64,000 nt of DNA from the NCBI GenBank assembly GCA_964016885.1, contig OZ024747.1, positions 32,240,001 through 32,304,000 of the forward strand, written 5' to 3'. Position 1 is the stretch's first letter, and every line of letters starts with the position of its first letter. Source of the stretch: Eledone cirrhosa. Taxonomy: Eukaryota. The translations under genes were made by a program, and so were the position numbers. Positions 1 through 62,162 of the stretch are shown here, piece by piece. Under the pieces are notes generated by a model. The model did not search any database. It saw only the letters and a program-made list of their open reading frames with translations, and was not told the DNA's origin.

Positions 1-3000
1 TCAGCTACGGCAGATCAGCCCAGGAACGGGACAAGAAACTGGCCGATCAATCAGCTGCAAAGAATTCTATGCTTATCATTTCATGGTAAGTGATCACTTC
101 AACCAAGCTCTGTGATTCAAAGAAGTAACCAGCCAGTTCATGGTGGACATGTATGCCAAAATTGAAACAGAAAGATTGGGTTTTCTGCGAAGGAATCAAA
201 CTAAGTTGAGGGCAGATAATTACATCCACCTTAGAGATGCCATCAATTCTGATGTTGACCCAAGAAATATTGGCCAGCCAGTCATACTACCATCAAGCTT
301 CACAGGAGGACTACGTTACATGCATGAACGTACACAAGATGCAATGGCCTATGTCAGAAAATTTGGTCGGCCAGATCTCTTCATTACATTTACATGCAAT
401 TCAAACTGGTCAGAAATATCAAATGAATTATTTCAAAATCAAAAACCAAAGGATCGACATGACCTCATTGCTTGGGTTTTCCATGAAAAGCAAAAAACAA
501 CTCATCTGGCTCTTTAAAAGAAGGAAGAATCTTTGGTGAGTTTAGTGCTTGGATGACCACTATTGAGTGGCAGAAGAGAGGTCTTCTTCACTCTCACACA
601 CTAATCAGGTGCAAAGAGAAGATAAGACCAGATGATGTTGATAAGATCATTTCAGCAGAGTTGCCTGATAAAGGTGGTGATCCAGAACTCTTTGAAACCA
701 TCAAGTCCAAACTCATTCATGGTCCATGTGGAGTCATCAATCCAGCCTCTCCCTGCATGAAAGATAAAAAATGTAACAAACATTATCCAAGAGCTTTTAT
801 TCGGGAAACTCGGACTGACAATAATGGGTCCCCCCTTTATCGTAGGCATAGACCAGAACATGGAGGCAATACTGCAAGCCTAACAGTTCGAGGAGAGGAG
901 CTGACCATAAACAATCAGTGGGTGCGTCCCACACAACAAATTGTTGTGTACACTTTTAAAAGTTCATATCAATGTTGAGTATTGCAGCTCCGTCAAGGCA
1001 ATCCTATATGTCACAAAATATATCAACAAGCGCAGTGACATGGCTACCTTTATTACTGAGAAAGAACTCAATGATGGTGGGCTGGATGAGGTCAAACAGT
1101 ATCAAACAGGTCGATACATCTCCAACAATGAAGCTATCTGGCGAATCTTTGGATTTGATATCCACCAATGCCATCCAACAGTGGTCAACCCCACAGTCCA
1201 TCTGGAAAATGGACAGAGAGTGTACTTCACAGATCACTGCTTATCAGCTGGAACAAGCATCACATGACACTACACTAACTGCTTTCTTTAAACTCTGCCA
1301 GAATGATGAATTTTCTCGATCCCTCCTATATGCTGAAGTCCCAACATACTACACCTGGACCTATTGCAAGACCTGGAATCGAAGAAAGCAGGTCATTTAG
1401 TGGAAGGTCATGAAGTCAAGTCAAGTGATGCTATTGGGCGTGTTTACAATGTCCATCCCAACAACCAAGAATGTTTTTATTTACAGCTACTTCTGCATAC
1501 TGTTCGAGGAACAAGGTCATTTGAGGATCTTAGGTGCTTCAGAGGAAGGGAGTGCGCAACATACCAAGAAGCATGTAAACAGTATGGACTCCTACATGAC
1601 AATGGACACTGGAAGAAGTGCCTAGAAGAAGCAGCAATCACTCAAGTAGCCAGTCAAATAAGACAATTATTTGCTATTATGCTCACAGCATGTGGAATTG
1701 ATGAAGCTCATCTACCCTGGTAGGAGTACAAAAACAATATGTCGGACGACTATCTACACCTAGCCTGAAGACATCATGGCAATATGTATATGGAATATAC
1801 CCCCCCCCCCCCTCCAGGATTTACAATCAAGCTCTCTGTGACCTGTCCCATCAAGTTCAGGCAATGAATAGCACATTAGCTAACTGTGGGATGCCAGAGC
1901 CAGATGAAGAAATGGAGGTAGCACAAGACATTTTTCAGGAGACAAACTATGATATTGAAGCATTGCGTAAGTTTGTGGATGAAAATGAACCTCGATTGAT
2001 GGAAATACGCCTACCACAGTATCATCGAAAACATTCAAAATGACAGGGGAGGATTTTTATTCATAGATGCTCCAGCTGGCACAGGCAAGACATTCCTCAT
2101 AAACCTCCTGCTTGCAAAAGTTCGCCAAAAGCAACATATTGCCCTTGCAGTGGCTTCAAGTGGCATCGCAGCAACACTTCTGGATGGAGGAAGAACTGCA
2201 CACTCCATGTTTAAGCTGTCCATAGATCTCACACGGCATGAACAATCTTTTTGCAACATCAAGAAGAACTCACCCAAGGGAAAGCTTCTGCAAACATGCA
2301 AGATGATAATTTGGGATGAAGCTACTATGAGCCATAAAGGAGCAATTGAAGCTTTGGACCGGACAATAAGGGATCTGAGAGAAAATAGTTGCATAATGGG
2401 AGGAGTGACAATTGTTCTTGCTGGTGATTTCAGACAAACTCTGCCTGTAAATCTTCGAGGGACTCGAGCTGATCAGGTCAATGCCTGTCTGTAAACATCC
2501 TATCTCTGGCTGCACTTTCAGCTGCTGAGCCTTACAACCAGCATGTGAGTGCACTTAACTGGTGACGAAGGTGTCAGTGTGTTTGCCATCCAACTACTTA
2601 AATTGGGAAATGGACTTCTTGAAAAGGACTTCAATGACCATATTCAGTTGTCATTTGGCCATATCATTGACAGAGAACAAGAACTGATTGCCAGAGTGTT
2701 TCCAATCATTCAGACCAGACATGTCTCTGTGAACGAGCAATTTTAGCACCTAAAAATGTTGCTGCGAAAGAAATCAACAGAAGGCTACTGGAGATGTTAC
2801 CGGGAGAGAAAATATGTTACAAATCAGTTGACACAATCACTTCTCAAGACCAGGTTGTAAACTCTCCAACTGAATTTTTGAACAGTCCGAACAAGCGGGA
2901 ATTCCTCCATACAATCTGATACTGAAGCTTGGAGCATCGGTTATGCTACTTCGCAATCTGGATCCTCCAAACTTTGTAATGGCACAAGACTCATCATAAA

Positions 3001-3331
3001 AAATATGATGTCCAATGTTCTAGAAGTTGTAATCATGTCAGAAAAATTTGCTGATGACAATTGTTTCATTCCCAGAATACCTCTGAAGCCAACTGATATG
3101 CCATTTGAATTTCAAAGACTTCAATTTCCGATCAGGCTCAGTTTTCCCATGACCATTAATAAATCTCAAGGGAAATCATTGAAAGTCGTTGGGTTGAATC
3201 TGGCAGATCCTGTCTTTTCACATGGTCAATTCTATGTTGGCACAACAAGGGTTGGGAACCCTGATTGTCTTTTCATTGTGGCACCACAGGGAAAAACCAA
3301 GAATGTTGTTTATTCAGATGCTTTGGAATGA
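1..3331 (+). pseudogene. Helitron Rep (HUH endonuclease)/PIF1-family helicase, multiple frameshifts and stops
   Basis: Rep motifs PDLFITFTCN, IEWQKRGLLHSH, YVTKYINK. Helicase motifs DAPAGTGKTF, ASSGIAATLLDGGRTAHS, IIWDEATM, GDFRQTLPV, QFPIRLSFPMTINKSQG, FSHGQFYV, KTKNVVY. Confidence 0.95.
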
Positions 3332-7892: not shown

Positions 7893-8329
7893 TAAGTATG
7901 TACACGTACATACATATATGTATACAGACGTACAGTAGTATGTATATTTATATACATACATGCACACATATATATATGTACGTATGGATTCACCGAACAT
8001 TTATTATAATGCTCGGTGTGTTTGTAAACAAACATCCCGTATTAAGCCGTAGTGTCTAGCAACCATCGTTGCTCGTTTGTTCAACACTGACAAAGGAACG
8101 CTGTACTAGTTTCAAGCTTATTAGCTATCGTCAGCAACGTATACCTTCCTGCCAGATTGTTGAACGTATATACTTACCTTATGCATATTAACGGCTGAGT
8201 AGCCCAATTTGCATATCGAGTAGGTTAATCGGCCGGGTACACCGAAAACGATAAACGATAAATGTTATACTTATATTTAAGTAACAGACGTACTAAGAGT
8301 GGGAAATGAAATTTTGTTTCATTTTTTCC

Positions 8330-8335
<6 letters not shown>
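7893..8335 (-). mobile_element. Partial copy of the ~435-bp HHR-bearing repeat family, with a short inverted piece
   Basis: Matches 21805-22170; 8265-8335 is the family start in inverted orientation; flanked by (TA)n. Confidence 0.8.
8099..8139 (-). ncRNA. Minimal type I hammerhead ribozyme
   Basis: CGTTG-CTGACGA-T AGCT AATA AGCT T-GAA-ACTAGT-A-CAGCG on the minus strand. Confidence 0.75.
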
Positions 8336-8371
<36 letters not shown>

Positions 8372-8377
<6 letters not shown>

Positions 8378-10580
8378 AAATATGGAAACTAAAGGACCCC
8401 ACAGCCAGAAATAAATTTAAAAGCATACTGCTTGATGCTTTCGACAGTAAGGAAGAGCAATTAGAGTCGTACAATATAGAGGAGCAGTGGGAATTCCTGA
8501 AAGCAAACCTGCTGATGGCGGCAGACGAAGTCTGTGGCTGGAGCAGGCCTGTAGGCAGGAGGAGAGTAACATGGTGGTGGAACAGTAAGGTGGAGGGGTC
8601 AATTAAGGCCAAAAAGCAGGCTTGGAAAGTATGGCGGGATGGGGGAAGTAGAGAAGACTATCAAGTGGCCAGGAGGGAAGCTAGGAGACAAGTGTACTTC
8701 GCAAGAAGGGAAGCAGAGGAAAGAAAGTTCAAGCATGTTCTACAACGCGAGGACCAAAAACGTGAGGTGTTCAGGATTGCTAGGCAATGTGTCAAGGAAA
8801 ACCGTGATATTGTCGGGGAGAAGTGTGTACTTAATGATGACGGCGTACTTGCCATCACCGACGCTGATAAGAAGGTAGCTTGGAAGTGTCACTAAATGAG
8901 TGCTACTAAATGAGGAGAATAAATGGGAGAAAGACAGTCTCCCCCACATCGACCCAATAGAGGGACCAGCAGTGTTAGTCGAGGGTAGTATAATAAGTAA
9001 GGCAATCAAGGATATGAAGACGGGTAAGGCAGCTGGGCCTTCGGAAATAGTTGCGGAGATGCTGAAGGCATCTGGCACGGTGGGACACACCATGGTCACC
9101 CGGATAGTTAACCAAGTCGTACAGAATGGGGTTGTTCCGAAGGACTGGCGTAGCATCATCATTGTTAATTGGGTAAAAGAGATGCCCTAGATAGGAGTAA
9201 CTATAGAGGCATTAAATTAATCGACCAGGTCATGAAGGTCACGGAAAAAGTAATAGCGCAACTAATCAGAGAGAGAATTGACCTCGATGAAATGCAGTTC
9301 GGGTTTGTGTCAGGCAAAAGTACCACAGACGCTCTTTTCATTGTACAACAACTACAGGAGAAGTACCTAGCTAAAAGTAAACCCCTCACTTAGCTTTTGT
9401 CGACTTGGAGAAAGCCTTCGACAGAGTCCCCCGTTCCATTATCTGGTGGGCTCTTAGAAAACTAGGTGTTGACGAATGGCTTGTGAGAGCTATACAAGCC
9501 ATGTATAAAGAAACAGTCAGCAAGGTTAGAATTAACAACGAATATAGTGAAGAGTTTAGCGTAAAAGTTGGTGTTCATCAGGGCTCTGTTCTTAGCTCCT
9601 TATTATTTATTATTGCCCTTCAGGCTATAACAGAGGAGTTCAAGACCGGCTGCCCATGGGAACTCCTATACGCAGACGACCTAACACTCATAGCTGAATC
9701 AATGGCCGAGCTAGAGAAGAAATTCCAAACATGGAGGCACGGCCTAGAATCAAAAGGCCTTAAAATTAACCTGGCTAAGACCAAAGTTCTAGTTTGTAGG
9801 AAAGAAAATAAGGCGGCGGTCCCTTCCGGGAAGTGGCCATGCTCAGTGTGTAGGAAAGGCGTAGGTAGAAACTCCATTTTGTGTCCCAAATGCAAAGTAT
9901 GGGTGCATAAAAGATGTAGTGGGATCACAGGTAAGCTAACTAAGAACATAGATTTTACATGTGGCCGGTGCTCTGGTGCAATAAGTAGCAGCAAGTGCCC
10001 ACAAAATACTAGCTCTTTCAACTGCGCAGAGGGCTCTATAGAAATAGTGGACAGCTTCCGTTAGCTGGGTGACAAAATCAGCAGTGGGGGAGGGTGCTCA
10101 GAAAGTACAGTAGCTAGAGTCAGAACTGGATGGAAAAAGTTCAGAGAGCTTATACCACTATTAGCCGCTAAAGGGTTCTCCCTAAAAATGAAAGGCAGGT
10201 TGTATGATGCCTGCATACGAACAGCAATGTTGCATGGCAGTGAGACCTGGGCATTGTGTGCAGAGGATATATGCAGACTAGAGAGGAACGAAGCTTGCAT
10301 GCTCCGCTGGATGTGTAATAGTAATATACGTGAACGGCAAAGCATAAACGAACTAAGGAAAAAATTAGAAATAAGAGGGATCAGATGTTGTTTACTCGAG
10401 AGAAGGCTACGTTGGTATGGACACGTGATGCGCATGAAAGTTGATAGCTGTATAGCAAAGTGCAGGGCAATAAAGATAGACGGTAGCCACGGAATAGGCA
10501 GACCCAGAAAAACCTGGGACGAGCTGATAAACTCCGACCTCACACACTTACACCTCTCCAAGACAATGTCACTGGACTGA
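8372..10580 (+). pseudogene. RTE reverse transcriptase (frameshifted) with an embedded Cys/His finger
   Basis: TWWWN, GKAAGPSEI, NYRGIKL, QFGF, EKAFDRVPR, GVHQGSVLS, LLYADDL, CSVC..CPKC..VHKRC..CGRC, LHGSETW, RLRWYGHVMR, GRPRKTW. Confidence 0.93.
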
Positions 10581-15311: not shown

Positions 15312-15836
15312 GATAAAATACAAAGTTTGTTTTATAAATAGAGACGGACCCATGACAATCATACCTTATCTGTTGGAAATTCATTGTATATATATATATA
15401 TATATATATATTTTCTTATTTTACGTCCTTTATATTATTGTTCTGCATTCTCCTGCATTGAACCACCTAGGTACTATGACATAACCTGTGTATTTGCTGG
15501 CATGGACGTGCATCTGTGCGCTTATGTTAGTTGATATATTAAATTATCTATATTTATCTCCAAATCACTGATTTGTCGAGCAAACTTGTCAAAACCACTT
15601 CTAAAAAAATTTTTTTTGGGGTGTTAGTAGGCGTCAGTCATCTTACCATCCCATTCCTTCTAACTAGCCTCTGTGTCACGTGATTGATTCTTTAGAATCG
15701 GCCATTTGACTTGAAGCAGTGAGAATTTCGGTACATAGAATCCAGTCCTCGCAAGCTGTTCGATCTACCGAATTATTATTATTTTTATATGAGCCGCCAG
15801 TGTCCGCGCATTGCCTGGAGACTTAACTGAGAATAG

Positions 15837-15918
15837 ACTTCCTGATGACGCAATGAATTCTCGACAGTTGGATTACATAACTGTCTTTATCCCATTGCAG
15901 AAACTAATTAGTTGGAGT
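15837..15918 (+). ncRNA. Type I hammerhead ribozyme, 557-bp unit 1
   Basis: ACTTC-CTGATGA-C GCAATG...GACAGTT ggattacat AACTGTC...CATTGC A-GAA-ACTAATTAGT-T-GGAGT; covaries with the copy at 23361. Confidence 0.8.
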
Positions 15919-16393
15919 GAAAATTTAAGTAAGAAAAAAATTTTTTTTAAATTTTTTTAAAAAAATATTTTCTTATTTTACGTCCTTTATATTATTGTTC
16001 TGCATTCTCCTGCATTGAACCACCTAGGTACTATGACATAACCTGTGTATTTGCTGGCATGGACGTGCATCTGTGCGCTTATGTTAGTTGATATATTAAA
16101 TTATCTATATTTATCTCCAAATCACTGATTTGTCGAGCAAACTTGTCAAAACCACTTCTAAAAAAATTTTTTTTGGGGTGTTAGTAGGCGTCAGTCATCT
16201 TACCATCCCATTCCTTCTAACTAGCCTCTGTGTCACGTGATTGATTCTTTAGAATCGGCCATTTGACTTGAAGCAGTGAGAATTTCGGTACATAGAATCC
16301 AGTCCTCGCAAGCTGTTCGATCTACCGAATTATTATTATTTTTATATGAGCCGCCAGTGTCCGCGCATTGCCTGGAGACTTAACTGAGAATAG

Positions 16394-16475
16394 ACTTCCT
16401 GATGACGCAATGAATTCTCGACAGTTGGATTACATAACTGTCTTTATCCCATTGCAGAAACTAATTAGTTGGAGT
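16394..16475 (+). ncRNA. Type I hammerhead ribozyme, 557-bp unit 2
   Basis: Same sequence as 15837-15918. Confidence 0.8.
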
Positions 16476-16950
16476 GAAAATTTAAGTAAGAAAAAATTTT
16501 TTTTTAAATTTTTTTTAAAAAATATTTTCTTATTTTACGTCCTTTATATTATTGTTCTGCATTCTCCTGCATTGAACCACCTAGGTACTATGACATAACC
16601 TGTGTATTTGCTGGCATGGACGTGCATCTGTGCGCTTATGTTAGTTGATATATTAAATTATCTATATTTATCTCCAAATCACTGATTTGTCGAGCAAACT
16701 TGTCAAAACCACTTCTAAAAAAAATTTTTTTGGGGTGTTAGTAGGCGTCAGTCATCTTACCATCCCATTCCTTCTAACTAGCCTCTGTGTCACGTGATTG
16801 ATTCTTTAGAATCGGCCATTTGACTTGAAGCAGTGAGAATTTCGGTACATAGAATCCAGTCCTCGCAAGCTGTTCGATCTACCGAATTATTATTATTTTT
16901 ATATGAGCCGCCAGTGTCCGCGCATTGCCTGGAGACTTAACTGAGAATAG

Positions 16951-17032
16951 ACTTCCTGATGACGCAATGAATTCTCGACAGTTGGATTACATAACTGTCT
17001 TTATCCCATTGCAGAAACTAATTAGTTGGAGT
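16951..17032 (+). ncRNA. Type I hammerhead ribozyme, 557-bp unit 3
   Basis: Same sequence as 15837-15918. Confidence 0.8.
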
Positions 17033-17507
17033 GAAAATTTAAGTAAGAAAAAAATTTTTTTTAAATTTTTTTAAAAAAATATTTTCTTATTTTACGTCCT
17101 TTATATTATTGTTCTGCATTCTCCTGCATTGAACCACCTAGGTACTATGACATAACCTGTGTATTTGCTGGCATGGACGTGCATCTGTGCGCTTATGTTA
17201 GTTGATATATTAAATTATCTATATTTATCTCCAAATCATTGATTTGTCGAGCAAACTTGTCAAAACCACTTCTAAAAAAATTTTTTTTGGGGTGTTAGTA
17301 GGCGTCAGTCATCTTACCATCCCATTCCTTCTAACTAGCCTCTGTGTCACGTGATTGATTCTTTAGAATCGGCCATTTGACTTGAAGCAGTGAGAATTTC
17401 GGTACATAGAATCCAGTCCTCGCAAGCTGTTCGATCTACCGAATTATTATTATTTTTATATGAGCCGCCAGTGTCCGCGCATTGCCTGGAGACTTAACTG
17501 AGAATAG

Positions 17508-17589
17508 ACTTCCTGATGACGCAATGAATTCTCGACAGTTGGATTACATAACTGTCTTTATCCCATTGCAGAAACTAATTAGTTGGAGT
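17508..17589 (+). ncRNA. Type I hammerhead ribozyme, 557-bp unit 4
   Basis: Same sequence as 15837-15918. Confidence 0.8.
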
Positions 17590-18065
17590 GAAAATTTAAG
17601 TAAGAAAAAAATTTTTTTTTAAATTTTAAAAAAAAAATATTTTCTTATTTTACGTCCTTTATATTATTGTTCTGCATTCTCCTGCATTGAACCACCTAGG
17701 TACTATGACATAACCTGTGTATTTGCTGGCATGGACGTGCATCTGTGCGCTTATGTTAGTTGATATATTAAATTATCTATATTTATCTCCAAATCACTGA
17801 TTTGTCGAGCAAACTTGTCAAAACCACTTCTAAAAAAATTTTTTTTGGGGTGTTAGTAGGCGTCAGTCATCTTACCATCCCATTCCTTCTAACTAGCCTC
17901 TGTGTCACGTGATTGATTCTTTAGAATCGGCCATTTGACTTGAAGCAGTGAGAATTTCGGTACATAGAATCCAGTCCTCGCAAGCTGTTCGATCTACCGA
18001 ATTATTATTATTTTTATATGAGCCGCCAGTGTCCGCGCATTGCCTGGAGACTTAACTGAGAATAG

Positions 18066-18147
18066 ACTTCCTGATGACGCAATGAATTCTCGACAGTTGG
18101 ATTACATAACTGTCTTTATCCCATTGCAGAAACTAATTAGTTGGAGT
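18066..18147 (+). ncRNA. Type I hammerhead ribozyme, 557-bp unit 5
   Basis: Same sequence as 15837-15918. Confidence 0.8.
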
Positions 18148-18623
18148 GAAAATTTAAGTAAGAAAAAAATTTTTTTTTAAATTTTAAAAAAAAAATATTT
18201 TCTTATTTTACGTCCTTTATATTATTGTTCTGCATTCTCCTGCATTGAACCACCTAGGTACTATGACATAACCTGTGTATTTGCTGGCATGGACGTGCAT
18301 CTGTGCGCTTATGTTAGTTGATATATTAAATTATCTATATTTATCTCCAAATCACTGATTTGTCGAGCAAACTTGTCAAAACCACTTCTAAAAAAATTTT
18401 TTTTGGGGTGTTAGTAGGCGTCAGTCATCTTACCATCCCATTCCTTCTAACTAGCCTCTGTGTCACGTGATTGATTCTTTAGAATCGGCCATTTGACTTG
18501 AAGCAGTGAGAATTTCGGTACATAGAATCCAGTCCTCGCAAGCTGTTCGATCTACCGAATTATTATTATTTTTATATGAGCCGCCAGTGTCCGCGCATTG
18601 CCTGGAGACTTAACTGAGAATAG

Positions 18624-18705
18624 ACTTCCTGATGACGCAATGAATTCTCGACAGTTGGATTACATAACTGTCTTTATCCCATTGCAGAAACTAATTAGTT
18701 GGAGT
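18624..18705 (+). ncRNA. Type I hammerhead ribozyme, 557-bp unit 6
   Basis: Same sequence as 15837-15918. Confidence 0.8.
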
Positions 18706-18771
18706 GAAAATTTAAGTAAGAAAAAAATTTTTTTTAAATTTTTTTTAAAAAATATTTTCTTATTTTACGTC

Positions 18772-18823
<52 letters not shown>

Positions 18824-21522: not shown

Positions 21523-21658
21523 TCATCATTTCTGAAGACAGCATGTATATGTGAAGGTATGTATATTTCCTCTGATAATTTGTAATATTTTTACATAGAT
21601 CTATATGATATACATACTAACACACATATACATCCTAGAAACGATCGTAAAATGATGA
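21523..21658 (+). ncRNA. Type I hammerhead with long stem II
   Basis: TCATCATTT-CTGAAGA-C AG C ATGTATATGTG...CACATATACAT C CT A-GAA-ACGATCGT-A-AAATGATGA (9-bp stem I). Confidence 0.8.
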
Positions 21659-24447: not shown

Positions 24448-24480
<33 letters not shown>

Positions 24481-25347
24481 GGAGAAAAAATTTACGAAAT
24501 GGAAATGCGGGTATAAAGAATTTATTAGATAACAATTGTTTCTATAGTGTATGAGTTACCTATACCTCGCTACTTGAATAATACACAAATATTATCAAAA
24601 ACCGAAAGTACACTGTAAGCCAGCACACCATGTCATGAGACCTTTGTATTAGAATGATATGAAAATATTTTATACACTAGATAAAAGATAAAGAAGTAGG
24701 TAGGAAGAGAAGGGGAAGAGGGACGTGAGTAAGGTGGAGGGAGTCTTAGGGTTTAAGACTGTCAGACTAGTAGAGATTGTGAAGAGAGAATGTTTTGGCA
24801 GCAGTTAGCTTAATGAGGCGTGCTAAGGTTGGCTGGGAAGTAGATTCTTCTAGTGGTGTTGTTCGGAGAAAATTTAGTTAGAGGGGTCAAAGTAGTACAG
24901 TGTCACAGACAAGTTATTAGGGCTATTATAGTAGCAGGTTATTTCTAAAGGGGTCCAGAAAAACAGTGTTTAGTACTATTATTATAGAAAGCCATATCTA
25001 GTGTATAAACATATAGGACAGAAATTTGCAAACGTTGGTGTAAAAAGGTAACATTATATGCATTTAAAAAAAGAAAAAGTCGTTTTCAAACGATGGTTAC
25101 AATATAGAGAACGTTCAATTTTGCTGTTCAAAAGTTTGTTTACCGACGTTAAAATGCAGTATATCTCTAAATTGCATAACTTGCAGAATCGATGATTTTG
25201 CTGATATGCAGGCGCAGCTGCAATAATTTGCCAATCAAGGGAGAACGCTTGATTGTTCCTCCGAAGCTGCCAGGCTTTATCGGCGAGGGTTGTTACGGAG
25301 CGCATTTTCTCGTGCCTGATCGAAGATCGATGTTGGTATAGGCGAGC
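24481..25347 (-). mobile_element. PLE 3' fragment (GIY-YIG C-terminus at 25054-25345 + 3' UTR)
   Basis: RLYQHRSS ... TTLADKAWQL ... WQII ... CKLCNLE ... LLNSKIE ... CNH; flanked by (TA)n. Confidence 0.82.
24527..24602 (-). ncRNA. Hammerhead motif with U3-A8 core (TTGATAA)
   Basis: GGTT-TTGATAA-TAT tt GTGTAT...ATACAC t ATA-GAA-ACAATTGT-T-ATCT; weak stem I, but at the expected PLE 3' position. Confidence 0.5.
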
Positions 25348-25359
25348 CTATATATATAA

Positions 25360-29715: not shown

Positions 29716-29822
29716 TAAATATTTGCTCCACGGTTCTTATATATCTGATATATATTTATCCTTATCGAGCTCACTTTGGATTTTACTCTCAAATTTATTC
29801 TTATTACTATATATATATATAT

Positions 29823-29900
<78 letters not shown>

Positions 29901-29903
<3 letters not shown>

Positions 29904-31945
29904 AAAATGAGAGTTTATTTTAAATGAAAAAAAAAATGTCCTAAACGAGTGAAAGTATAAGGAAAAATGGAACTGGAGTTTATTTGTTTCCTTTACAGTT
30001 TCTACAAAAGTAGAATTGTGATGGAGGGTTTGTGGTTTTTCTCGCATCTGGCTGGTGTTCGAATGTTAATTCTGTTTTATGTGTAAAAGAGTGGCTCGAA
30101 ATTCTAGTTTTTTTTAGAAAATTAATTTTGTTGGTTGATGACTTTCACGTGAATAAGTATAATAAATTTAGCGCCAGTTCGCGTTACAGATTTCTTATTG
30201 TATTTGCCTTTAAAAAAAAGGGGAGGGGGCTCAGATTGTTTTTCATATATGAGTGAAATTTGGTTGGTTGATGCAGTCACGTGAATAAGCACATCAAATG
30301 TCGCGCCAGTTTGTGTCTGAGAGTTCTTTTCACTTAAAAAGTGTCTAAAAAAAGTTGTTTTTTTATAAATGTAATTTGATTGGTTATGACTGTCACGTGA
30401 ATAAGTACATTAAATTTCGCGCCAGGTCGTATTTGGGGGTTCTTTGTAGCCGTTTAGAGAGTTTCCTGCCAAACAAATGATAATGGTCAAGAAAAAAGCG
30501 ATGGGGAGAATTGTTCTGGTTCAGTGATGTGCTTGAGGTACTTGAGGTGCTTGAGGTGTCAAAATTCAAACTTTCTATTGAAATAAAAAAATAGAGATAT
30601 ATATATATTTATTTGTGTGGTGATGTGTGTGTGTGTGTGTGTGTGTGTAGGAAAATGATTCCATTAGTAGAAATGGGGGAGGGAGTTATGTGTGTGTTAT
30701 ATGTGTTTGGGAGTATGGTTAGCGTGTTTAGGTGGTGACAGGTTAAAGAATATATATTTGTGTGTGTGTGTGTGTGTAGGAAAATGATTCCATTAGTAGA
30801 AATGGGGGAGGGAGTTATGTGTGTGTGTATGGGTGTTATATGTGTATGTGGCGGGTATAGTTATCATGTTAAGGTCTTAGAGTATTAACGTATGTTAAGG
30901 TCTATTTAGCTCTGGTTTTTATTTTCGAATATAGAAGAGGGTGTTATGTGTGTGTGTGTGTATGTATGTGTCTGTTTGGATGGTGAGCATGTTATGGGGT
31001 TGACATAATGTATTTTAAACTATATTTAATGCTGGTCTATATTTTTGAATAAACATATTTTCTTTATTTATTCGTATTTGGTCTGTTGTATTGTCAGCGA
31101 AAAGATAAAATGGGAAGACTTGGAAATTGGGTGTCTTATTACTTGCGCATATTTCTATATGTGCACTGAGAGGTATATGTCTTGTGGTAGGGTCTCGTAA
31201 TTGTTGGCGATGAATTGTCATTCTGTTTCTGAGTGTGAGTTTAGTTTGCCCTATATAATCTTCATTGCATCCTTTACATTTAATGGCATAAACAACATTT
31301 TCTGATGATCAAGTAAAGTGATTTTTTACAACAAAATGTTGTCCTGATTGAAATGTATACATGGTGCCTTCAATGAGGTGAGTGCAAGTTCCACAATTAG
31401 AGCGACCACATTTTGTTACAGTTGGTTGTGGGTTTGTGGTAGGTAATTTGGCATTGGTGAGTAATGTTTTTAGTGATTTAGGTTGTCTTTTGCTTTTGAT
31501 TATTTAGTGTTTCAAGTGTTTTTTTTCATTCTTGGGTCTTGTTTCAATAGTGGGATGTTCTTGTAAATAATGTTGTATGCTTCCGCATTTCTTGGGTTGC
31601 GTGTTGAGATATATGATAGAATATTGGACGTAACTTGAATTTGTTTCTGTTTTCGTAATTTATCAATGCATATTGCTTTAGCCCTTTCTATTCCTGTATC
31701 TATTAATAACGGTGGGTACTGTGTTTCGAACAGAATTTCCTTTAATTCTTGAAGTCTTTTATTTCTCGTTTCATAATTGGCGACAATTGTGCAAATTCTT
31801 CTTGCTATTATTTGGAATCTGTTGGTTTGTAGTGGATGTCAGTTTCAATATTTGTGTCTTTTTTATGATTAAGAAGTCCAGAAATGGGAGTTGACCTTGG
31901 CTGTATTCCATTGTGAATTGGATGGGGTTATTAATGCCATTATTA
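29901..31945 (-). mobile_element. PLE family B (RT C-terminus, Zn finger, GIY-YIG, 3' UTR)
   Basis: IQFTMEYSQGQLPFLDFLI, CGRSNCGTCTH, YIGQTKLTLRNRMTIHRQQ, FIQKYRPALN; homologous to 53085-54772. Confidence 0.88.
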
Positions 31946-31949
31946 TATT

Positions 31950-33476
<1,527 letters not shown>

Positions 33477-35439: not shown

Positions 35440-35513
<74 letters not shown>

Positions 35514-35717
35514 GTCTTCAAAATGTTTATTATAAACATACAGAATATTTTCGAATATTCTATGTCTATATTCACATATATATCGCTATTTCAGAGCATT
35601 TATTCCAATTTCTAATTTCTGCCGGACCGGCAACCGCTCTTTCAAACCAATTCCTGTACACAGCTAAGTATTCTATAAGTCTCTAGCTGTGTCATTCTCG
35701 ATAAAAGCACTGGATAT

Positions 35718-35760
35718 GTAGTCCTGATGATTTCTAACAAGAATGAAACGCGTAGATTAC
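35718..35760 (+). ncRNA. Minimal type I hammerhead, 310-bp unit 1
   Basis: GTAGTC-CTGATGA-T TTCT AACA AGAA T-GAA-ACGCGT-A-GATTAC, enclosed by the 16-bp stem ATTCTCGATAAAAGCA/TGCTTTTATCGAGAAT. Confidence 0.82.
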
Positions 35761-36027
35761 TTCCCTTGCTTTTATCGAGAATCTAATTGTAATACGTGAC
35801 GTATTCTATTCTATAGCGATTAGGTCTTCAAAATGTTTATTATAAACATACAGAATATTTTCGAATATTCTATGTCTATATTCACATATATATCGCTATT
35901 TCAGAGCATTTATTCCAATTTCTAATTTCTGCCGGACCGGCAACCGCTCTTTCAAACCAATTCCTGTACACAGCTAAGTATTCTATAAGTCTCTAGCTGT
36001 GTCATTCTCGATAAAAGCACTGGATAT

Positions 36028-36070
36028 GTAGTCCTGATGATTTCTAACAAGAATGAAACGCGTAGATTAC
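36028..36070 (+). ncRNA. Minimal type I hammerhead, 310-bp unit 2
   Basis: Same sequence as 35718-35760. Confidence 0.82.
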
Positions 36071-36337
36071 TTCCCTTGCTTTTATCGAGAATCTAATTGT
36101 AATACGTGACGTATTCTATTCTATAGCGATTAGGTCTTCAAAATGTTTATTATAAACATACAGAATATTTTCGAATATTCTATGTCTATATTCACATATA
36201 TATCGCTATTTCAGAGCATTTATTCCAATTTCTAATTTCTGCCGGACCGGCAACCGCTCTTTCAAACCAATTCCTGTACACAGCTAAGTATTCTATAAGT
36301 CTCTAGCTGTGTCATTCTCGATAAAAGCACTGGATAT

Positions 36338-36380
36338 GTAGTCCTGATGATTTCTAACAAGAATGAAACGCGTAGATTAC
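36338..36380 (+). ncRNA. Minimal type I hammerhead, 310-bp unit 3
   Basis: Same sequence as 35718-35760. Confidence 0.82.
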
Positions 36381-36502
36381 TTCCCTTGCTTTTATCGAGA
36401 ATCTAATTGTAATACGTGACGTATTCTATTCTATAGCGATTAGGTCTTCAAAATGTTTATTATAAACATACAGAATATTTTCGAATATTCTATGTCTATA
36501 TT

Positions 36503-39454: not shown

Positions 39455-39518
<64 letters not shown>

Positions 39519-39696
39519 GATATCCACAGTAAGTTGTGGGGTCTATTCTGCATGAAGAACTCGATGTAATCCATATGTTGAAAATGTTGTAGGTTAAGAT
39601 AAATCTCGGAAAACAATAAAACATTAAAAGGAAAACAGAGTCATGATATAAGTTAAAACAATGAACTAAAAAAAATCAAGTCATTAGAGATATACT

Positions 39697-39840
39697 TCAC
39701 TGCTTTACGATCGTTTCTAGATGATGATAATACATTGTAGCTATACTCCGTTATTGATCTATGTAAGGTTAGTTACAAAATATCAGATAAAGAGAATATT
39801 TACTTACATGCATATCACCAGCTGTTTTCAAAAGCAATAA
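39697..39840 (-). ncRNA. Type I hammerhead with U3-A8 core (TTGAAAA) and long stem II
   Basis: TTATTGCTT-TTGAAAA-CAGCTGGTGATA...TATCATCATCTA-GAA-ACGATCGT-A-AAGCAGTGA; same architecture as 21523-21658. Confidence 0.72.
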
Positions 39841-40583
39841 TAATTTTATTCAGAATTAGTAGTATGTTAGTATCATGTCCTTATTTGGAGGTTGTTGAAT
39901 TGTTTTTTTCATATGGTGTTAAGATGAAAATTAATACACTTTAGTTGAGGTCATGACCCTTTGAAAGGAATGGTTGAATGGTGTTAATAGTAGAATTGGC
40001 ATAAAAATCTATTAGGAGAAAAGGGATTGTCAAACTGATACTGGAATGTATCTGGTATAGTGAAGTTAAAAAGAATGTCAAAATAAATGGTGATTAGTGT
40101 TGTATTGAGTTTTTAGGTGAATATAAATTAAGGTTATGGCTTGGAAAGATAGTATATTAAAAGATGAAAATTATAATAAGATAATGAAATACAGTAATTC
40201 GATAATATACAACTTAACCAACACAATATAGTACGGTATGGTAAATTGCACTTAGTTTAATACAGCATATGTTACGCTCTAAAATACTATCAAGTATGTT
40301 TATGCATAAATAATCAAACTCAGATAAATACATGTTGGCATAGTTAAAACACATACATTTCATAGATTATAAAGTGCATAGATCCACACTATATATATAG
40401 AGAGAGGTACAGTTATATTGATATCCAACCAAAAATATACATACGTGCAAATAGATGCAAACCTAAATACACATTTACACATATGCACATAATCATATAC
40501 ACACATATACATACATATCTATATCCACACATAAAACACCTATACTCACATATATATACATATATATATATATATACACACAT

Positions 40584-40668
<85 letters not shown>

Positions 40669-40673
40669 TATAT

Positions 40674-40704
<31 letters not shown>

Positions 40705-40984
40705 GAGAGAGATATGTGTGTATGTACACTCCTCATACATGTACACACACTCATATATAAACACTCATACACCTATACACACACATATATATATATACAC
40801 ACATACACAGACACACATACATATACATATATATATATACATATATATATGTGTACATGTATGTATATATATACATACTACTGTACGTCTGTATACATAT
40901 ATGTATGTACGTGTACATACTTATATATATATATATATAGTAAAATACATACATACCTGTGACTTTGTTTAATTGGTGTATGCG

Positions 40985-41257
<273 letters not shown>

Positions 41258-51135: not shown

Positions 51136-52945
51136 CACACTCTATAATTTTCTCTAGTGAATCCTTACTTAATAGAAAATCTGAGATATTCGCTTCTTGC
51201 CCCCACGCTATTTCTAATTCTTACTTTTATTATAAACCTAAAGGTTCTAGTAGTGTAAATTGTATCCATTAGCTGATATATTCCATTACTTATTTTTTTA
51301 GTTTAGGTTCTTTTTGTTTACCACCTTTATTATCATCACTATTATCATTGGTTTTTGACAACTTTTTATTCTAGCTCTCATAATCTTTTGGCTACTATAC
51401 CATATCTATCTTCTTACACATTAAATTTTCACTATTAACACCTTATGAGTATATATCTGATTATATATTTTATATTATTTTATTTCATTTTATTTTATTT
51501 TATTTGTATTCTTCTTTGGATACCCCTCCTCCCCCCATGCACACATAAACTTATTGCTAATCCCTTCAAATATATTATGATTATTTTTAATCCCCCCTTT
51601 TTTATGCTCCTTTCTATTATATAATACAGTATATTGATTATGATTTTATGCTCCTTTGTATCCTTCATACATTTCTTTTTTTCTGTCCCTATTAGCCTAC
51701 CATAATTCTGCTTAAGTCAGTTTTTTAGATATCGTTATGTAAATGATAGTAGAATATTTCATTCCTTTCTATATATACTTATAGTGAAATATTAATGTTT
51801 ACGGATTTTGATCACTTAAACCATAGCTAATATTGTATTGCCTTATTAGGTATTTTAAATATTTTCAATATTAATTTATCAAATAGGGTTTTCTAGTCAT
51901 TTATCCGGGTTGTTTCCTAAGTTTTTACTTAACTGCATGTGAGACCTAAGTAAATACTTTTGTTTTTGTTTTTTGATTTCCGGTCGATTTTATTTATTTA
52001 TTTATTAATACTACTGTGCATAGTATTTTCTGTCTGGCCCTTATTCACTCATTCACATATGTGTCTGTTTACCAACCTTGTAATTATAAGTAATTATATA
52101 TTATATTATGTTCATTATTTTATATTGAAGTTGTTATTCAACTCTTTGTAAATGTAATATTGATCTTTGTTACTTACCGATGATTTTATGTACCATTATG
52201 ATATGTTAAATTTTATATATCATGTAAGATGTTTATATATTTTTGTACCATCATAATTTTGGGTATTGTACAATTTATATTTTTTTTCTCACCTGCTCTC
52301 TAACTCTATATGAATTGATTTGTTAACTTACATGCCATTATATATTATATATTATTATATTATTATTATAGTGTTATTGTGACATATTGTTTGTGTAATT
52401 TAACCGGAGATTATCTATTATATTATATTATATATTATATAGTTTATTATATATTATATGTTACTTTTAATCATTTCATTACTTCATGTTATACTGTATA
52501 TTAGATATACGTATTATTTTTATTTTTATTCCTATTATGCTTATTTATATTTAAACTCTTAATAAGGTTTAATTTGTGCTGTTAATGATGGAAATATGTA
52601 TTGATGTATATGTATATGTGCGTACGTGTGCGTATATATATACATATGTATATTGTGCCTTTTAATTTTAATTTTAATTTTAATATTGTTACAAGTATAT
52701 TATATTATATTATATTGTATTACATATAGTACTATAATTCCCGCTCTATATAACCACCTTTGTTTAGCTCTAGTTTTTTGCTTTGGACTATATTTGTAAT
52801 ATGGTTCAAAATGTTATCCACCTCCTTAGTGATTTTTATTATATATTTTTACCCATAATCTTCCAATACTTTAGTGTATGTACACTCCATATTCTTCGGA
52901 GTTTTCGGCTTGTATTGGCCGATAGTGCTTCTTGTGGTTTTGATT

Positions 52946-52983
52946 GCCCTGATGAGTCCTTACTAGGACGAAACATTGTTGGC
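52946..52983 (+). ncRNA. Canonical minimal type I hammerhead ribozyme
   Basis: GCC-CTGATGA-GTCCT tact AGGAC-GAA-ACATTGT-T-GGC, about 50 bp before (TA)n. Confidence 0.85.
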
Positions 52984-53030
52984 TAATAAAGACTTTTGAT
53001 ATATTGAAGGCTTCTTTGTTTTATTTTCAT

Positions 53031-53084
<54 letters not shown>

Positions 53085-53085
<1 letters not shown>

Positions 53086-54772
53086 GAAACGCACAAAATA
53101 ATCAAAAGCAAAAGACAACCGAAATCAATGAAAACATTACTCACCAATACCAAATTACCTACCACAAACCCACAACCAACTGTCAAAAAATGTGGTCGCT
53201 CTAATTGTGGAACCTGCACTCACCTCATTGAAGGCAACACGTATACATTTAAATCAGGACAAAATTTTGCTGTAAAAAATCACTTCACTTGCTCATCAAA
53301 AAATCTAATTTATGCCATTAAATGTAAAGGATGCAATGAAGATTATATAGGACAAACTAAACTCACACTTAGAAACAGAATGACAGTTCATCGCCAACAA
53401 TTACAAGATCCAACCACGAGACAGATACCACTAAGCGCACATCTAGACATATGCGCAAGTAATAAGACACCCAAATTCCAAGTCTTCCCATTTTACCTTT
53501 GCGCTAACAATACAACAGAACAAATACGAATAAATAAGGAAAATATGTTTATTCAAAAATAAAGACCAGCATTAAATATGGTTTAATATACATTATGTCA
53601 ACACCATAACATGCTAACCATCCAAACAGACACATACACACACACATAACACCTGCTACTTTAGAAAATAAAAACCCGAACTAAATAAACCTTAACATAC
53701 GTTTGCGCTGACAATACAACAGAACAAATATGAATAAGTAAGGAAAATATGTTCATTCAAAAATATTCCTACTAAAGGAATCATTTTCCTACACACACAC
53801 ACACAATATATATATATATATTCTCTTCATCTTAACATGCTAACCATACTCCCACACACATAACACCAATACACACACATAACACCCCCACCCACTCACA
53901 CAACTCCCTCCCCCATTTCTACTAATAGAATCACTTTCCTACACACATATATACACACACACAAAATATATATATTCTCTCCATCTTAACATACCCCCCC
54001 CAAACACACATAACACCCATATACACACACACACCACTCCCTCCCCTCATTTCTACTAATAAAATCATCTTCCAATACACACACACACACACACACAAGC
54101 ACACACATAAACATACACATAGAAAATCTGAATTCTGACACCCCAGCGAACAAACCATATTCACTGAACCAGAACAATACTCCCATCCCATTTCTCTTGA
54201 CCATTATCTTTTGCTTGTCATAAAATTCTCTAAAAAGGCTACAGATTAGATTTCCAAATAAGAGCGCGAAAATTTAATGAAAACTTGTTCACGTGACAAC
54301 CATAATTTCATTTATAACCAATCAAATTACGTTTATTAAAAAAAGCCTTCGTGAGCCCCCTTTTTTAAGTAAAAAGAAATTCAAACACTCATATATGAAA
54401 ACACAACCTGTGCCCCCCCCCTTGTTTGAAGAACTTTGTAACGCGAACTGGCGCGAAATTTATTATAATTATTGACCAACCAATCAAATTACTTCTCTAA
54501 AAACCTGGCATTTCGAGCCACTTTTTTCCATATAAAACAAGTAACATTCAGAGACCAACCAGATGTGAGAAAAACCACAGACCCTCCATCTCAACTCTAC
54601 TTTTGAAAAGCAGAAGAACTGCGAAACCGGTAAAGGAACCAAATAAATATATATATATTTTTTTAGAAATAAGACTCCAGTTGCATTTTCGATTTCACCT
54701 TTTTTCTTTATACTTTCACTCGTGTAGGACACCTCGGTTATTTTTCATTTTGTAAAAAAAACCTCACTTTCT
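53085..54772 (+). mobile_element. PLE family B 3' fragment (Zn finger + GIY-YIG at 53090-53583, 3' UTR)
   Basis: KRQPKSMKTLLT, CGRSNCGTCTH, CSSKNLIYAIKCKGCNEDYIGQT..RMTVH. Confidence 0.9.
54600..54635 (+). ncRNA. Minimal hammerhead with U3-A8 core (TTGAAAA)
   Basis: CTT-TTGAAAA-GCAG aagaa CTGC-GAA-ACCGGT-A-AAG. Confidence 0.62.
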
Positions 54773-54773
54773 A

Positions 54774-54805
<32 letters not shown>

Positions 54806-58474: not shown

Positions 58475-61333
58475 TCAAGGATCAATTTTCCCCTTGTCCT
58501 TCTGCATATGAAAGTCTGCTGTCCAGGTTGGTGGTTTACGACTTCTTTGCGATCTCCGCAGTGTTGGGGCAGTACTTTGGGTTTCCTCTTCCTCGGAGTC
58601 CGTTGACACAGTGATTCTGCGGACATCCAGGACATGACGTGGTACTCCGTCCACGGACACATTGTTCTGGGAATTTACGGCCGTCACCGTTTCCCTTCCC
58701 CATTGAAATGTGCAACGTGCATCTGGGGGCTTAACCCAGACTTCTTCGCCCACCTGCACGAATGCACTCACTCTCCCAACTGGCCGTTGTGGTGGCGTGC
58801 ACGGGTGCCGCCACTCGTATCTGAATACTGCTCTGTGTGGCACCGATTCCTCGACCTGTCTCACCCGAGGGGACATGTTGTACCAGAACACTGCCTCCAT
58901 TGGTGAGATATGGCCCCGCTCCGCCATTGCCTTGATCGTCCGGTGGTGTCGCTCCACAATTCCATTCCCGCTCGGTCTCTGCCCTGCTGTGAAGAAACGG
59001 TCCACCTTCCATCCATCGAGCATCTCCCTCAGCTCCTCCGAGCGGAACGCTGCGCTGTTGTCCATCAGCAGTTCGTCCACAGGGCCCCGCTCCAAGAACA
59101 CCTCTCTCAACGTCCGCATGATTTCCTCGGCCGTTCCAGTCTTCATCTCCCTCCATATCGCCATCCGTCCTGGTCCACAGTCGACCATCGAGAGGTACGT
59201 TCCCTGTCGGTAGTGCGTTACATCCACCGCCAATCGCTTCAAGTCGCGATCCACCGGGAGGCTTCCCGTTTCGTGCACACCCGGGGCGGGATCAATGGAC
59301 TGACATCGGACGCAGCCTCTAACCACCCTTTGAACACTGTGTCTGTTAACGTCCGAGTCGATTCTCCTGGCTAGGAACAGGTTCCTATCCACTCCCATGT
59401 GGTGCATGTCATCCAACCCTTTCAGATCCGACTCGGTCAGCCGACACACGGCAGCAATCTCATCTTCTACCTCCTCCGGCGCTTCCATCCAGGCTTTCTT
59501 CACCCTAGTTAAGACGTCCGCCCTATTTTTCTCTGAGGGCACGAAAACTACGCTCAGCCTCAGGTCGAACTCGGTGGCCAGCTCTCCTAAAGTTCCCAAG
59601 CGGCGCTTTATCAGCATCTCCGCCGCCCCTCTCGTTCACACTCTCTTCTCACTGGTGAGCACTGATCTCACCCATCCGAGTACAGTAGCAAAGTCGGTGC
59701 GTATCTCGATGGTGCGCAGTCCCCACCTCAGGGCGAGTTCACCCCTCTCAACACTGCGTCCAGTTCGGTCACATTGATGTGGTTGCAGTCGTCCTTCTTC
59801 CTAAGCCAGGCCGCATCCTCGACCTCAACACCTCCTATCTCCAACGTGACACCCAGCGCTATGCTGCTGGCATCGCACCATACGGTCCCGCTCTGTGAGT
59901 TGGGAACATACCAGCGTCCCCGCACTGGGTTGTCGGCCTTCACCCTCCCCACGATCTCCTGCATCATGGCCACCGTCCTCTCTCCCACTCTGTCACTCCA
60001 AGTCACTCCTACCGCTCGTCTCTTGACATAGCTGCATGCCGTCCGGAGCCACCCAGCAATCGGGTAGTGACCCACCAACTTTCCACACACCGAGAAAAGC
60101 TCCCGCCTACTCATACTTGGGCCCAGTATTGGAACTTCATTTCCCCTCTGGAATACCAAGACGCCCGCCCTGTCTCGCCGTAGCCTAAGTCCCAGCGCGG
60201 CTCCTCCCTCCAACGCTTCTGACGGTTTTGCAGCCAGTCCATACCCCTGTAAATGGCTCGTGACCTCCGCCGCCGACACCACAGACTCGTCCACTAGGAT
60301 GTCGTCAATATAGGAGTTAGTGGCCCTCTTCATCTTGTCGGCCTTTCCCAGAATGGTCTTGAGGACCGCCGCCATGATCTTCGGTGCGGAGCTCAGCTCG
60401 AAACCGAGCCTGGTCAGGCAATATGTTCGGCCCTTATACCTGACCAGCTGATACTGCCAGAGCTTCTCATCTATATGCAATTGTAAGTATGCCGACTTTA
60501 GATCTACGATTGCTGAAACCCCCGTCATGCGTCTCCACTCACGCAGGGTTTCCCCCACAGACATCCGTGACCTCGCCACCCGTGTGGCATGACACGTGCT
60601 CGTTCAGCTCCCGAAAGTCCAGCACCGGCCTCACCTTGTTCTTCGTGCGTTGCGCCACCGCCATTAACGGCAATACTCCGCACTTCACCTCCTCTTTCCA
60701 GGGAAGCAGTATGCCCTCCTCAATCCATCTCTCTACCTCTCGCTCGAACTCGCTCCTAATGTTTCCCTTCAATGTGTGTTGATAGCAGTCCACTTTGGTC
60801 TTCAGTGTTGGTGGTTCTCCCTTCCAGTACCAGTAAACAACCCATCGCTGCCCATCGAACACGGCCTTGAAGTCTTTGTCCTGCACAGTCTAAGCGGGGT
60901 ATTTCTCCTCGTGGGCCTTCTGGTTCTCCTGTCGCGCACTCACAGCGCATACCGATGCAGCGGCGCCAAACGACACACCGACGTTGTTCACTGTGACGCC
61001 TCCTAGACGGCCAATTGTGTCCATGCCCATAACCACGCCGATCCCATCCACCACGCTGTCTACTACGATGGCAGAAAGCCTTATTTTCCTTTCCCGTACC
61101 GCTATTTCCATCTCGCTGCGACCCCGGCATTCAATTTTCATGCCGTCGACTGCCTTTACGCTGCTCTTCCCTCTCCACCTCTGCGCCACCCCCGCGGTCA
61201 CCAGTGTCGTCGTGCAGCCCGTGTCCACGAGGGCTCGCTGTGGCTTTCCCCTCACGAAGACTTCCACCACGGGCAGCACCTCTACTCGTAAGGGGCAACT
61301 ACCGGCGCAGTAGTTCCCCTTGGATCGTTTCCC
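58475..61333 (-). pseudogene. pol (protease, RT, RNase H, integrase) with a stop and frameshifts
   Basis: ALVDTGC, RPVLDFRELN, DLKSAYLQ, SYIDD, WCDAS, HMGV..CVRC, LAVDV, MDN, NGIVERHHRTIK, LRRSQRSRKPP. Confidence 0.93.
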
Positions 61334-62043
61334 TGGTCGCAGTTAATAGCGATGTGGCTTGGTCGCTTACACCGGTAGCATATTATTTCCGGCATTGACT
61401 CTCTGCAGTCCCTAGCCATGTGCGGGCTCTGGCACCGAAAACAGCGACCTCTAAACGTTCGCGGGCGACTGCGTGCCGTGGTTGTCTCCCTTTCACCATT
61501 TCGCTGCCAGCTGTATTGAGCCTCTGTAGTTGCTATCGCCGCAATACTCTTCTTGGCATCTTCTGCTATGATCCGGGCTTATTCCACCAGTGAACGCATT
61601 TCCATTTCTTTGTAACTCGGGACTTGCTGCAGTTTCAGCGCTATGTCGTCTGGAAATCCATTTATGAACGCCAACCGCACCGTGCGTTCGCATTCCACCT
61701 GATATCCGGCCAACATGGCCAATCGCCGTATTTCCGCTGCGAAAATGTCAACGCATTCACCGTTCCATCTAATTCTTCCCAGCTTAGCGAAAGCGGCTAA
61801 CGGTCCCTCTGCGAATGCTTCCATCATGCGCCTCTCAATCTTTTGCGCATCTCTTTGGCTGTGTTCGTCCAACTCAAGGAAGAGTACCAACGCGTCACCC
61901 TCAAGGTACAGTGCCATGAGGCCAGCCACATCTTCTATCTTCTGCAAGCTTGCGACCAGCCGGACTTGTCGCAGCCAAGCGACAACATCACCTTCCCCGG
62001 TAAATGCCCTGATAGCTCCGCTTGTTCGTAGTCTTGCCGCCAT
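61282..62043 (-). pseudogene. gag with two CCHC knuckles, premature stop
   Basis: FTGEGDVVAWL..LYLEGDA; CFRCQSPHMARDC and CYRCKRPSHIAINC. Confidence 0.88.
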
Positions 62044-62162
62044 CTTCTAATTTGTCTTGCGGTACGTGATAAAAAAAAACAACAGACTCATCTCTGTTTT
62101 TCCAGTAGCATTTTTTTTTTTTTTTTTTCAATCAGATCTCAGTTTCCAGTGCCGAAATAGCT

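Follow-up and report, generated by a model that had tools for sequence, protein, structure and literature searches.

Hammerhead-shaped motifs with a U3-A8 core pair in the terminal repeats of Penelope-like elements of Eledone cirrhosa, probably the product of repeated paired switching

Background

Catalysis by the hammerhead ribozyme requires G5, A6, A9, the GAAA tract, U16.1 and a nucleotide other than G at position 17, and position 7 of the core is free. Penelope-like elements (PLEs) usually carry just one open reading frame (ORF). For the core pair 3-8, Perreault et al. 2011 (PMC3088659) state that a number of natural ribozymes have U3 and A8 by covariation in place of C3 and G8. The same paper states, citing Przybilski and Hammann 2007, that U3-A8 swaps had earlier been shown to be active in vitro. 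PLE hammerheads of Schistosoma with U3-A8 were subsequently described, having been missed by the authors' own descriptor (approximately 1,300 hits), and metazoan PLE hammerheads were reported to have low activity in vitro (Cervera and de la Pena 2014, PMC4209133). A later study delimits the Hydra clade of PLEs and calls the function of the hammerhead in PLEs unclear (Craig et al. 2021, PMC8557442).

An earlier note on the DNA analysed here treated the natural U3-A8 swap as if it were new; it had been in print since 2011 (PMC3088659) and, for PLE hammerheads, since 2014 (PMC4209133). The note also took it as established that the C3U/G8A double change restores the pair. This is better described as dependent on context: in the accessible part of an exhaustive double-mutant scan of one hammerhead, pair 3-8 was rescued by a G-C swap only (PMC9901934).

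Here we describe hammerhead-shaped motifs with U3-A8 from the genome of E. cirrhosa, their host elements, and the states of pair 3-8 counted across the genome. The rival explanations and the likely number of switches are discussed in the light of these counts.

Results

Hammerhead motifs in the window

The window is the whole stretch of DNA analysed, 64,000 nucleotides of contig C7 of a 3.0-Gb genome (G000). Microsatellites and retroelement fragments abound in it, with several GIY-YIG endonuclease pieces among the fragments. Judging by motifs in the ORF list, we take three further fragments to resemble a Helitron helicase (116-3331, plus), an RTE-type non-LTR reverse transcriptase (8281-10580, plus) and an LTR-retrotransposon pol (58475-62046, minus). 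Two tandem arrays, of 557 bp x6 (15377-18800, plus) and 310 bp x3 (35502-36421, plus), have a canonical hammerhead in each unit and are retrozyme-like.

A type I hammerhead descriptor that placed no constraint on positions 3 and 8 found 22 motifs in the window, of which 19 are C3-G8, one is motif A with U3-A8, and two are weak parses. An Rfam scan of the window (E of at most 1) gave no match to motifs A, B and C or to the motif at 21523, and it also missed all 22 descriptor motifs, most of them canonical. Its only hammerhead match was a canonical small hammerhead at 52943-52987 (plus; RF00163, 24.8 bits, below gathering). The features discussed below are as follows.

39697..39840, minus strand: motif A, type I hammerhead motif with U3-A8; core TTGAAAA at 39831-39825, predicted cleavage after 39706
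39458..41165, minus strand: 3' end (3' UTR and terminal repeat) of a 5'-truncated family A element, a PLE of Hydra type by its motifs
21523..21658, plus strand: canonical hammerhead (C3-G8), sister to motif A and in one clade with it
54600..54635, plus strand: motif B, minimal type I hammerhead motif with U3-A8; core TTGAAAA at 54603-54609, predicted cleavage after 54632
53085..54805, plus strand: 5'-truncated family B copy, a PLE of Neptune/Nematis type by its motifs; GIY-YIG endonuclease remnant at 53092-53559
24527..24643, minus strand: family C hammerhead, decayed canonical (C3-G8); core CTCATGA at 24639-24633
24454..25349, minus strand: 5'-truncated family C copy, a PLE of Hydra type by its motifs; endonuclease remnant at 25347-25057

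Motifs A and B have the type I order, with stem I open and stems II and III closed, and in both U4, G5, A6, A9, G12, A13, A14, A15.1-U16.1 and H17 are all present. Pair 3-8 is Watson-Crick, U-A in A and B and C-G in family C. In full-length copies of families A, B and C the motifs flank the reverse transcriptase (RT) and GIY-YIG ORFs at both ends.

Motif C is a misread canonical core

The earlier note had reported three hammerheads with a TTGANAA core. Motifs A and B stand as described; motif C does not. With TTGATAA (24598-24592) as the core, motif C has no proper stem I, and this heptamer lies inside a long stem II; it occurs in other family C copies too. The true core of the family is 41 nt upstream and is flanked by a 4-bp stem I (aggt/acct). 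It reads CTGATGA in 30/30 other copies examined, all with aggt in stem I. As these copies had been picked for their closeness to the window sequence, a decayed core common to them would have been favoured by the choice. The window copy itself has CTCATGA, with G5 lost, and one mismatch in stem I. An alternative parse, which gives motif C a U3-A8 core and a bulge in stem I, was dropped because the canonical core upstream has a perfect 4-bp stem I. By its sequence, motif C is a decayed hammerhead of the ordinary C3-G8 kind. The copy at 24454..25349 is 97.9% identical over 896 nt to a full-length copy (L274), in which the hammerhead lies in direct repeats flanking the RT and GIY-YIG ORF.

Family A and its canonical sisters

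Motif A has a stem I of 9 bp, 7 of them Watson-Crick, a rod-like stem II of 107 nt closed by a C.A pair, GAAA at 39717, a GUA site at 39706 and the palindrome ACGATCGT as stem III. Its fold has a z-score of -3.19, and 0 of 200 shuffles were equally stable. It is homologous to the canonical motif at 21523-21658; the stem III, the C.A pair at 10.1-11.1 and the long stem II that the earlier note had seen in common between the two are indeed shared. The replacement of G-C by C.A at 10.1-11.1 occurs in the long-stem-II hammerheads at 39697-39840, 21523-21658, 24527-24643 and 15837-15918.

Over 1781 nt the host sequence (39458..41165) shares 80% identity with the 3' portion of L311, a near-full-length copy. 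In several copies approximately 1.2-1.4 kb separate the end of the endonuclease from the hammerhead downstream, and in L311 and L314 the motif flanks the ORF on both sides. The L314 ORF has the motifs RWR, DKT and CNCRNRRIC, and the family A GIY-YIG domain is a Pfam match. No full 830-aa frame was found in approximately 30 RT matches to family A (83-95% identity), and the C-G sister has many. Family A looks older than this sister and now appears largely decayed.

A pattern for family A with N at positions 3, 7 and 8 has 611 matches in the genome. Among 100 of these matches listed, 98 are U3-A8, one is U3-G8 and one U3-U8, with no C3 (scored by eye). Position 7 is A in 74, C in 23 and U in one of the 98 U3-A8 copies; positions 3 and 8 are constant. 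Across several subfamilies U3-A8 was retained, although there were changes at position 7 and in the stems.

A second pattern covers the whole long-stem-II CGATCG clade, the motif at 21523 included (the A clade), and has 11,799 matches; 91 of 100 matches listed are C3-G8, eight U3-A8 and one A3-G8. All 100 U3-A8 copies listed belong to the family A lineage, which points to one switch within the clade. Single changes are found on many sequence backgrounds at approximately 0.5% per site, and by eye 7/58 C3-A8 and 2/69 U3-G8 copies have a family A background. A local cluster at C10:37.30-37.59 Mb holds seven of the 69 U3-G8 copies, at least 5 kb apart; these are likely segmental duplications rather than transposition.

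Structure within the A clade was compared among 15 representatives of our choice. All 15 have a Watson-Crick pair 3-8, and stem I covaries, with compensatory changes. Stem II keeps its rod shape with differing sequences, and a conserved distal hairpin with an internal loop lies approximately 40 nt from the core; it is possibly a contact or protein site. Run on a MAFFT alignment, RNAalifold found both stem I and the distal hairpin but missed the proximal part of stem II, which was misaligned; the stems were therefore folded singly.

Family B

Motif B has a 4-bp stem II with a G-C closing pair, the palindrome ACCGGT and a GUA site at 54632. Its stem I is 3 bp in the window copy and 4 bp in most family copies examined. 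As a monomer it is no more stable than shuffles (z=-0.32). Neither ACGATCGT nor ACCGGT forms a hairpin in the monomer; their intermolecular duplexes are predicted at -10.0 and -8.3 kcal/mol, respectively.

The host copy is 87% identical over 1802 nt to a full-length element (L296), whose 775-aa ORF has Pfam RVT_1 and GIY-YIG matches and the motifs GLKF, DKG and CGRSNCGTC (a Cx4Cx2C linker), with a C-terminal GIY-YIG domain. By the motifs GxKF, DKG and Cx2-5CxxC and the C-terminal GIY-YIG, family B appears to be of Neptune/Nematis type. The hammerhead motif is approximately 1.05 kb downstream of the GIY-YIG domain and is downstream in 15/15 endonuclease loci; L296 has it at both ends and, in addition, an inverted copy. 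Many copies have an intact 775-aa ORF, which indicates a young family that has been successful with U3-A8. A C3-G8 sister of family B was sought among 1.94 Mb of genome loci and none was found.

In L296, from contig C2, a second, upstream ORF of 409 aa (L296:3353-4579, plus) runs, in a different frame, into the beginning of the 775-aa RT-endonuclease ORF. Six copies have a near-identical junction, which contains A/T runs, and related ORFs are present at other loci; the 409-aa ORF has no Pfam match. This arrangement could reflect a PLE with two ORFs or with frameshifting, or else a retained intron. An older relative of family B at 29808-31977 (minus) in the window has its hammerhead core region deleted.

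The exact family B pattern has 11,820 matches in the genome. Only 101 lack U3 and 47 lack A8, giving U3-A8 in at least 11,672, and A8 is kept in all 100 of the 101 non-U3 copies that were listed. Seven C3-A8 copies approximately 9.6 kb apart form a local cluster at C1:348.86-348.95 Mb and likewise are likely segmental duplications rather than transposition. Over the motif B core, contigs of the DNA-type runs X2, X5 and X7 list no alternative letter at 54603 or 54608, and X2 contigs over motif A vary at position 7 of the core only; X2 is possibly the source organism, so its contigs are not counted as independent support.

Pair 3-8 across the genome

Counting was done by patterns with N positions, a first DNA search having been biased towards the core of its own query; every genome pattern gave 0 matches for the reversed control. 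The earlier note had proposed counting double against single changes within each family. In the A clade there are 981 U3-A8 copies against 58 C3-A8 and 69 U3-G8, approximately 8:1, and independent decay on a C3-G8 background predicts approximately 0.3 doubles. In family B the figures are at least 11,672 against 101 and 47, approximately 80:1. Single changes at pair 3-8 amount to approximately 0.2-0.9% (A clade and family B). The note had read the same double change in three families as compensatory rather than decay. The inheritance of the change and its excess over single changes agree with that reading for A and B; C is not such a family. Its place in the evidence is taken by two other U3-A8 families, F5 and F46.

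An unbiased sample of 80 evenly spaced 10-kb stretches (800 kb) gave 67 motifs with a stem I of at least 4 bp: C-G 54, U-A 12, C-A 1 and U-G 0, with none in the reversed control. With at least 3 bp the 74 motifs are C-G 56, U-A 13, C-A 1, U-G 3 and G-A 1. The copies are not independent, 11 of the C-G motifs coming from one tandem array. The claim that searches with a CTGANGA pattern pass over such motifs is borne out by the 12 of 67.

In 1.94 Mb of loci, a biased set, there are 36 clusters (26 C-G, 6 U-A, 3 C-A, 1 C-U). Those with at least two distinct sequences number 20: 15 C-G, 4 U-A and one C-A, the last a false parse that overlaps a canonical motif. No credible single-change core was found in a multi-copy family among these 20. 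When the descriptors were relaxed, false parses appeared, such as a cluster with G3-U8 in AT-rich DNA, and these were not counted as families; on shuffled DNA the relaxed descriptors gave eight matches, none C-G or U-A.

The four multi-sequence U-A clusters are A, B, F5 and F46. F46 has its motif at both ends of a Hydra-type ORF at one locus (L275), and RWK is present in families C and F46. F5 has the core TTGATAA, the palindrome CTACGTAG and a GUC site (L193:1090-2274, L132, L268, L071 and L037). It is a 592-bp tandem unit without a long reading frame and is retrozyme-like; a parent PLE was not found in the loci examined. Families A, C and F46 appear to be of Hydra type, a name given from motifs rather than from reference sequences.

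Number of switches

In an RT tree rebuilt without family B from 15 of 63 RT pieces (a quick tree), F46 groups with the C-G family C (SH-aLRT 99), and the 21523 clade is the sister of family A (SH-aLRT 99). A single clade of A and F46 is rejected in this quick tree (AU p=0.0025). In a larger RT tree that includes family B there is a very long branch and the backbone is unresolved; this tree needs three changes, of which well-supported branches force only one. For F6, F11 and F13, the state label comes from one or two loci per family. The hammerheads follow the RT tree: A shares the CGATCG stem III and the distal hairpin with its C-G sisters, F46 shares CAATTG-UU with family C, and the 13-nt stem II motif of family B is unrelated to those of A or of F46 and C.

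Since A and F46 are not one clade and family B is another PLE type, there were probably at least three separate U3-A8 switches in this genome, gains and reversions being inseparable by parsimony. The copy counts are clonal, so that the independent events number approximately 3-6, not thousands.

Discussion

Compensation and its rivals

The pair state is fixed within each family, and single changes occur only as scattered mutations after insertion. We consider with good confidence that motifs A and B are hammerhead-shaped parts of PLE terminal repeats in which U3-A8 has replaced C3-G8 in almost all copies, and that the replacement is likely compensatory, keeping the core pair for self-cutting. 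Under the mechanism proposed, the palindromic stem III, unable to form a hairpin within a monomer, would join tandem or inverted copies to each other; the cleavage predicted at GUA would depend on the dimer and process the PLE transcript. U3-A8 would be an isosteric replacement of C3-G8, and selection on master elements would fix the second change after the first, probably on at least three separate occasions in this genome. It may be, speculatively, that dimer partners buffer the intermediate with one mismatch. Counting against compensation, the genome is AT-rich and each of the two changes is a transition towards A/T, motif B has a stem I of 3-4 bp and no stable monomer fold, and A has C.A in place of G10.1-C11.1, as do its canonical sisters.

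The core might instead be kept for a structural or protein-binding role, or for marginal cleavage, with U3-A8 saving the fold of an RNA that does not rely on cutting itself. Minimal PLE hammerheads are described as poor cleavers in vitro even as dimers, with other functions left open (PMC4209133), Naiad PLEs are reported to have spread without canonical hammerheads (PMC8557442), and one mutant scan gives the U-A swap low activity (PMC9901934). We nevertheless think this unlikely, since G5, A6, A9, GAAA, U16.1 and a nucleotide other than G at 17 are retained in the U3-A8 families. The pairing could also be coincidental, a master element whose ribozyme was relaxed having drifted by two transitions towards A/T and then amplified; the low GC of the genome (mostly 22-44% in the window), the small number of independent events and the present decay of family A are in keeping with such hitch-hiking. 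Drift, however, predicts more one-change than two-change families, together with changes elsewhere in the core. The four multi-copy U-A clusters against no credible multi-copy single-change cluster among 20, and the persistence of U3-A8 in family A through its subfamilies, make it very improbable.

A different objection is that U3-A8 arose once, long ago, and was spread between PLE families by exchange of terminal repeats, or was later reverted. The backbone of the tree with family B and the limits of parsimony leave room for this, and the tracking of the RT tree by the hammerhead sequences, with the unrelated motif of B, speaks against it; we regard it as quite unlikely. It concerns history only and would still imply a functional pair. 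Returning to compensation, we lean, by a little, towards the fuller statement that the PLE lineages of this one genome saw three or more independent changes of pair 3-8 from C-G to U-A, that no lineage came to rest with a mismatch, and that the U-A lineages include a young family of more than 11,000 copies.

If this is true, the repeated flips would be a natural evolutionary experiment, one pointing to selection of PLEs for catalytically competent hammerheads. Repeated paired switching would be sequence evidence of selection on PLE hammerhead cores, against their merely riding along, a matter raised by the account in PMC8557442. The sister pairs (A with the 21523 clade, F46 with C) would serve as natural controls for how context permits the U-A pair.

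Comparison with known systems

The natural U3-A8 swap is already known, and repeated paired switching is a modest addition to it. Perreault et al. (PMC3088659) have the same variant as scattered examples, without double-versus-single counts or a phylogeny in the parts of the paper considered here. A search of titles and the beginnings of abstracts, with most subscription papers outside its reach, gave no double-versus-single counts and no counts of independent origins, a gap that does not establish novelty. The contribution of this genome lies in quantity and history, approximately 18% (12/67) of the hammerhead motifs in the unbiased sample being U3-A8.

The Hydra clade of PLEs (PMC8557442) resembles the Hydra-type families here in an RWK-like motif (read in A, C and F46), in DKT and a CxCx5C linker (read in A), and in a C-terminal GIY-YIG, a single ORF and hammerheads. 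The hammerheads reported for it there are canonical, whereas lineages A and F46 have U3-A8. An assignment to Naiad was ruled out by the C-terminal endonuclease and the Hydra- or Neptune-type motifs. The non-LTR retrozymes, as presented in the available text (bioRxiv 10.64898/2026.07.22.740005; PMC7229834), are tandem non-coding units with type I hammerheads, which is the form of F5; motifs A, B and C, in contrast, are the ends of coding PLEs.

Another close case is that of the minimal hammerheads of the Cercyon PLE of Schistosoma mansoni, which have the same U3-A8, lie in PLE terminal repeats, were missed by a C3-G8 descriptor and, in the account given (PMC4209133), are mostly single motifs. 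The hosts in E. cirrhosa differ, being of Hydra and Neptune/Nematis type as far as their motifs indicate. Stem III is a palindrome of 6-8 nt here and is empty in Cercyon, the stem II of motif A is 107 nt long with C.A as its closing pair, and the copy numbers are higher (more than 12,000).
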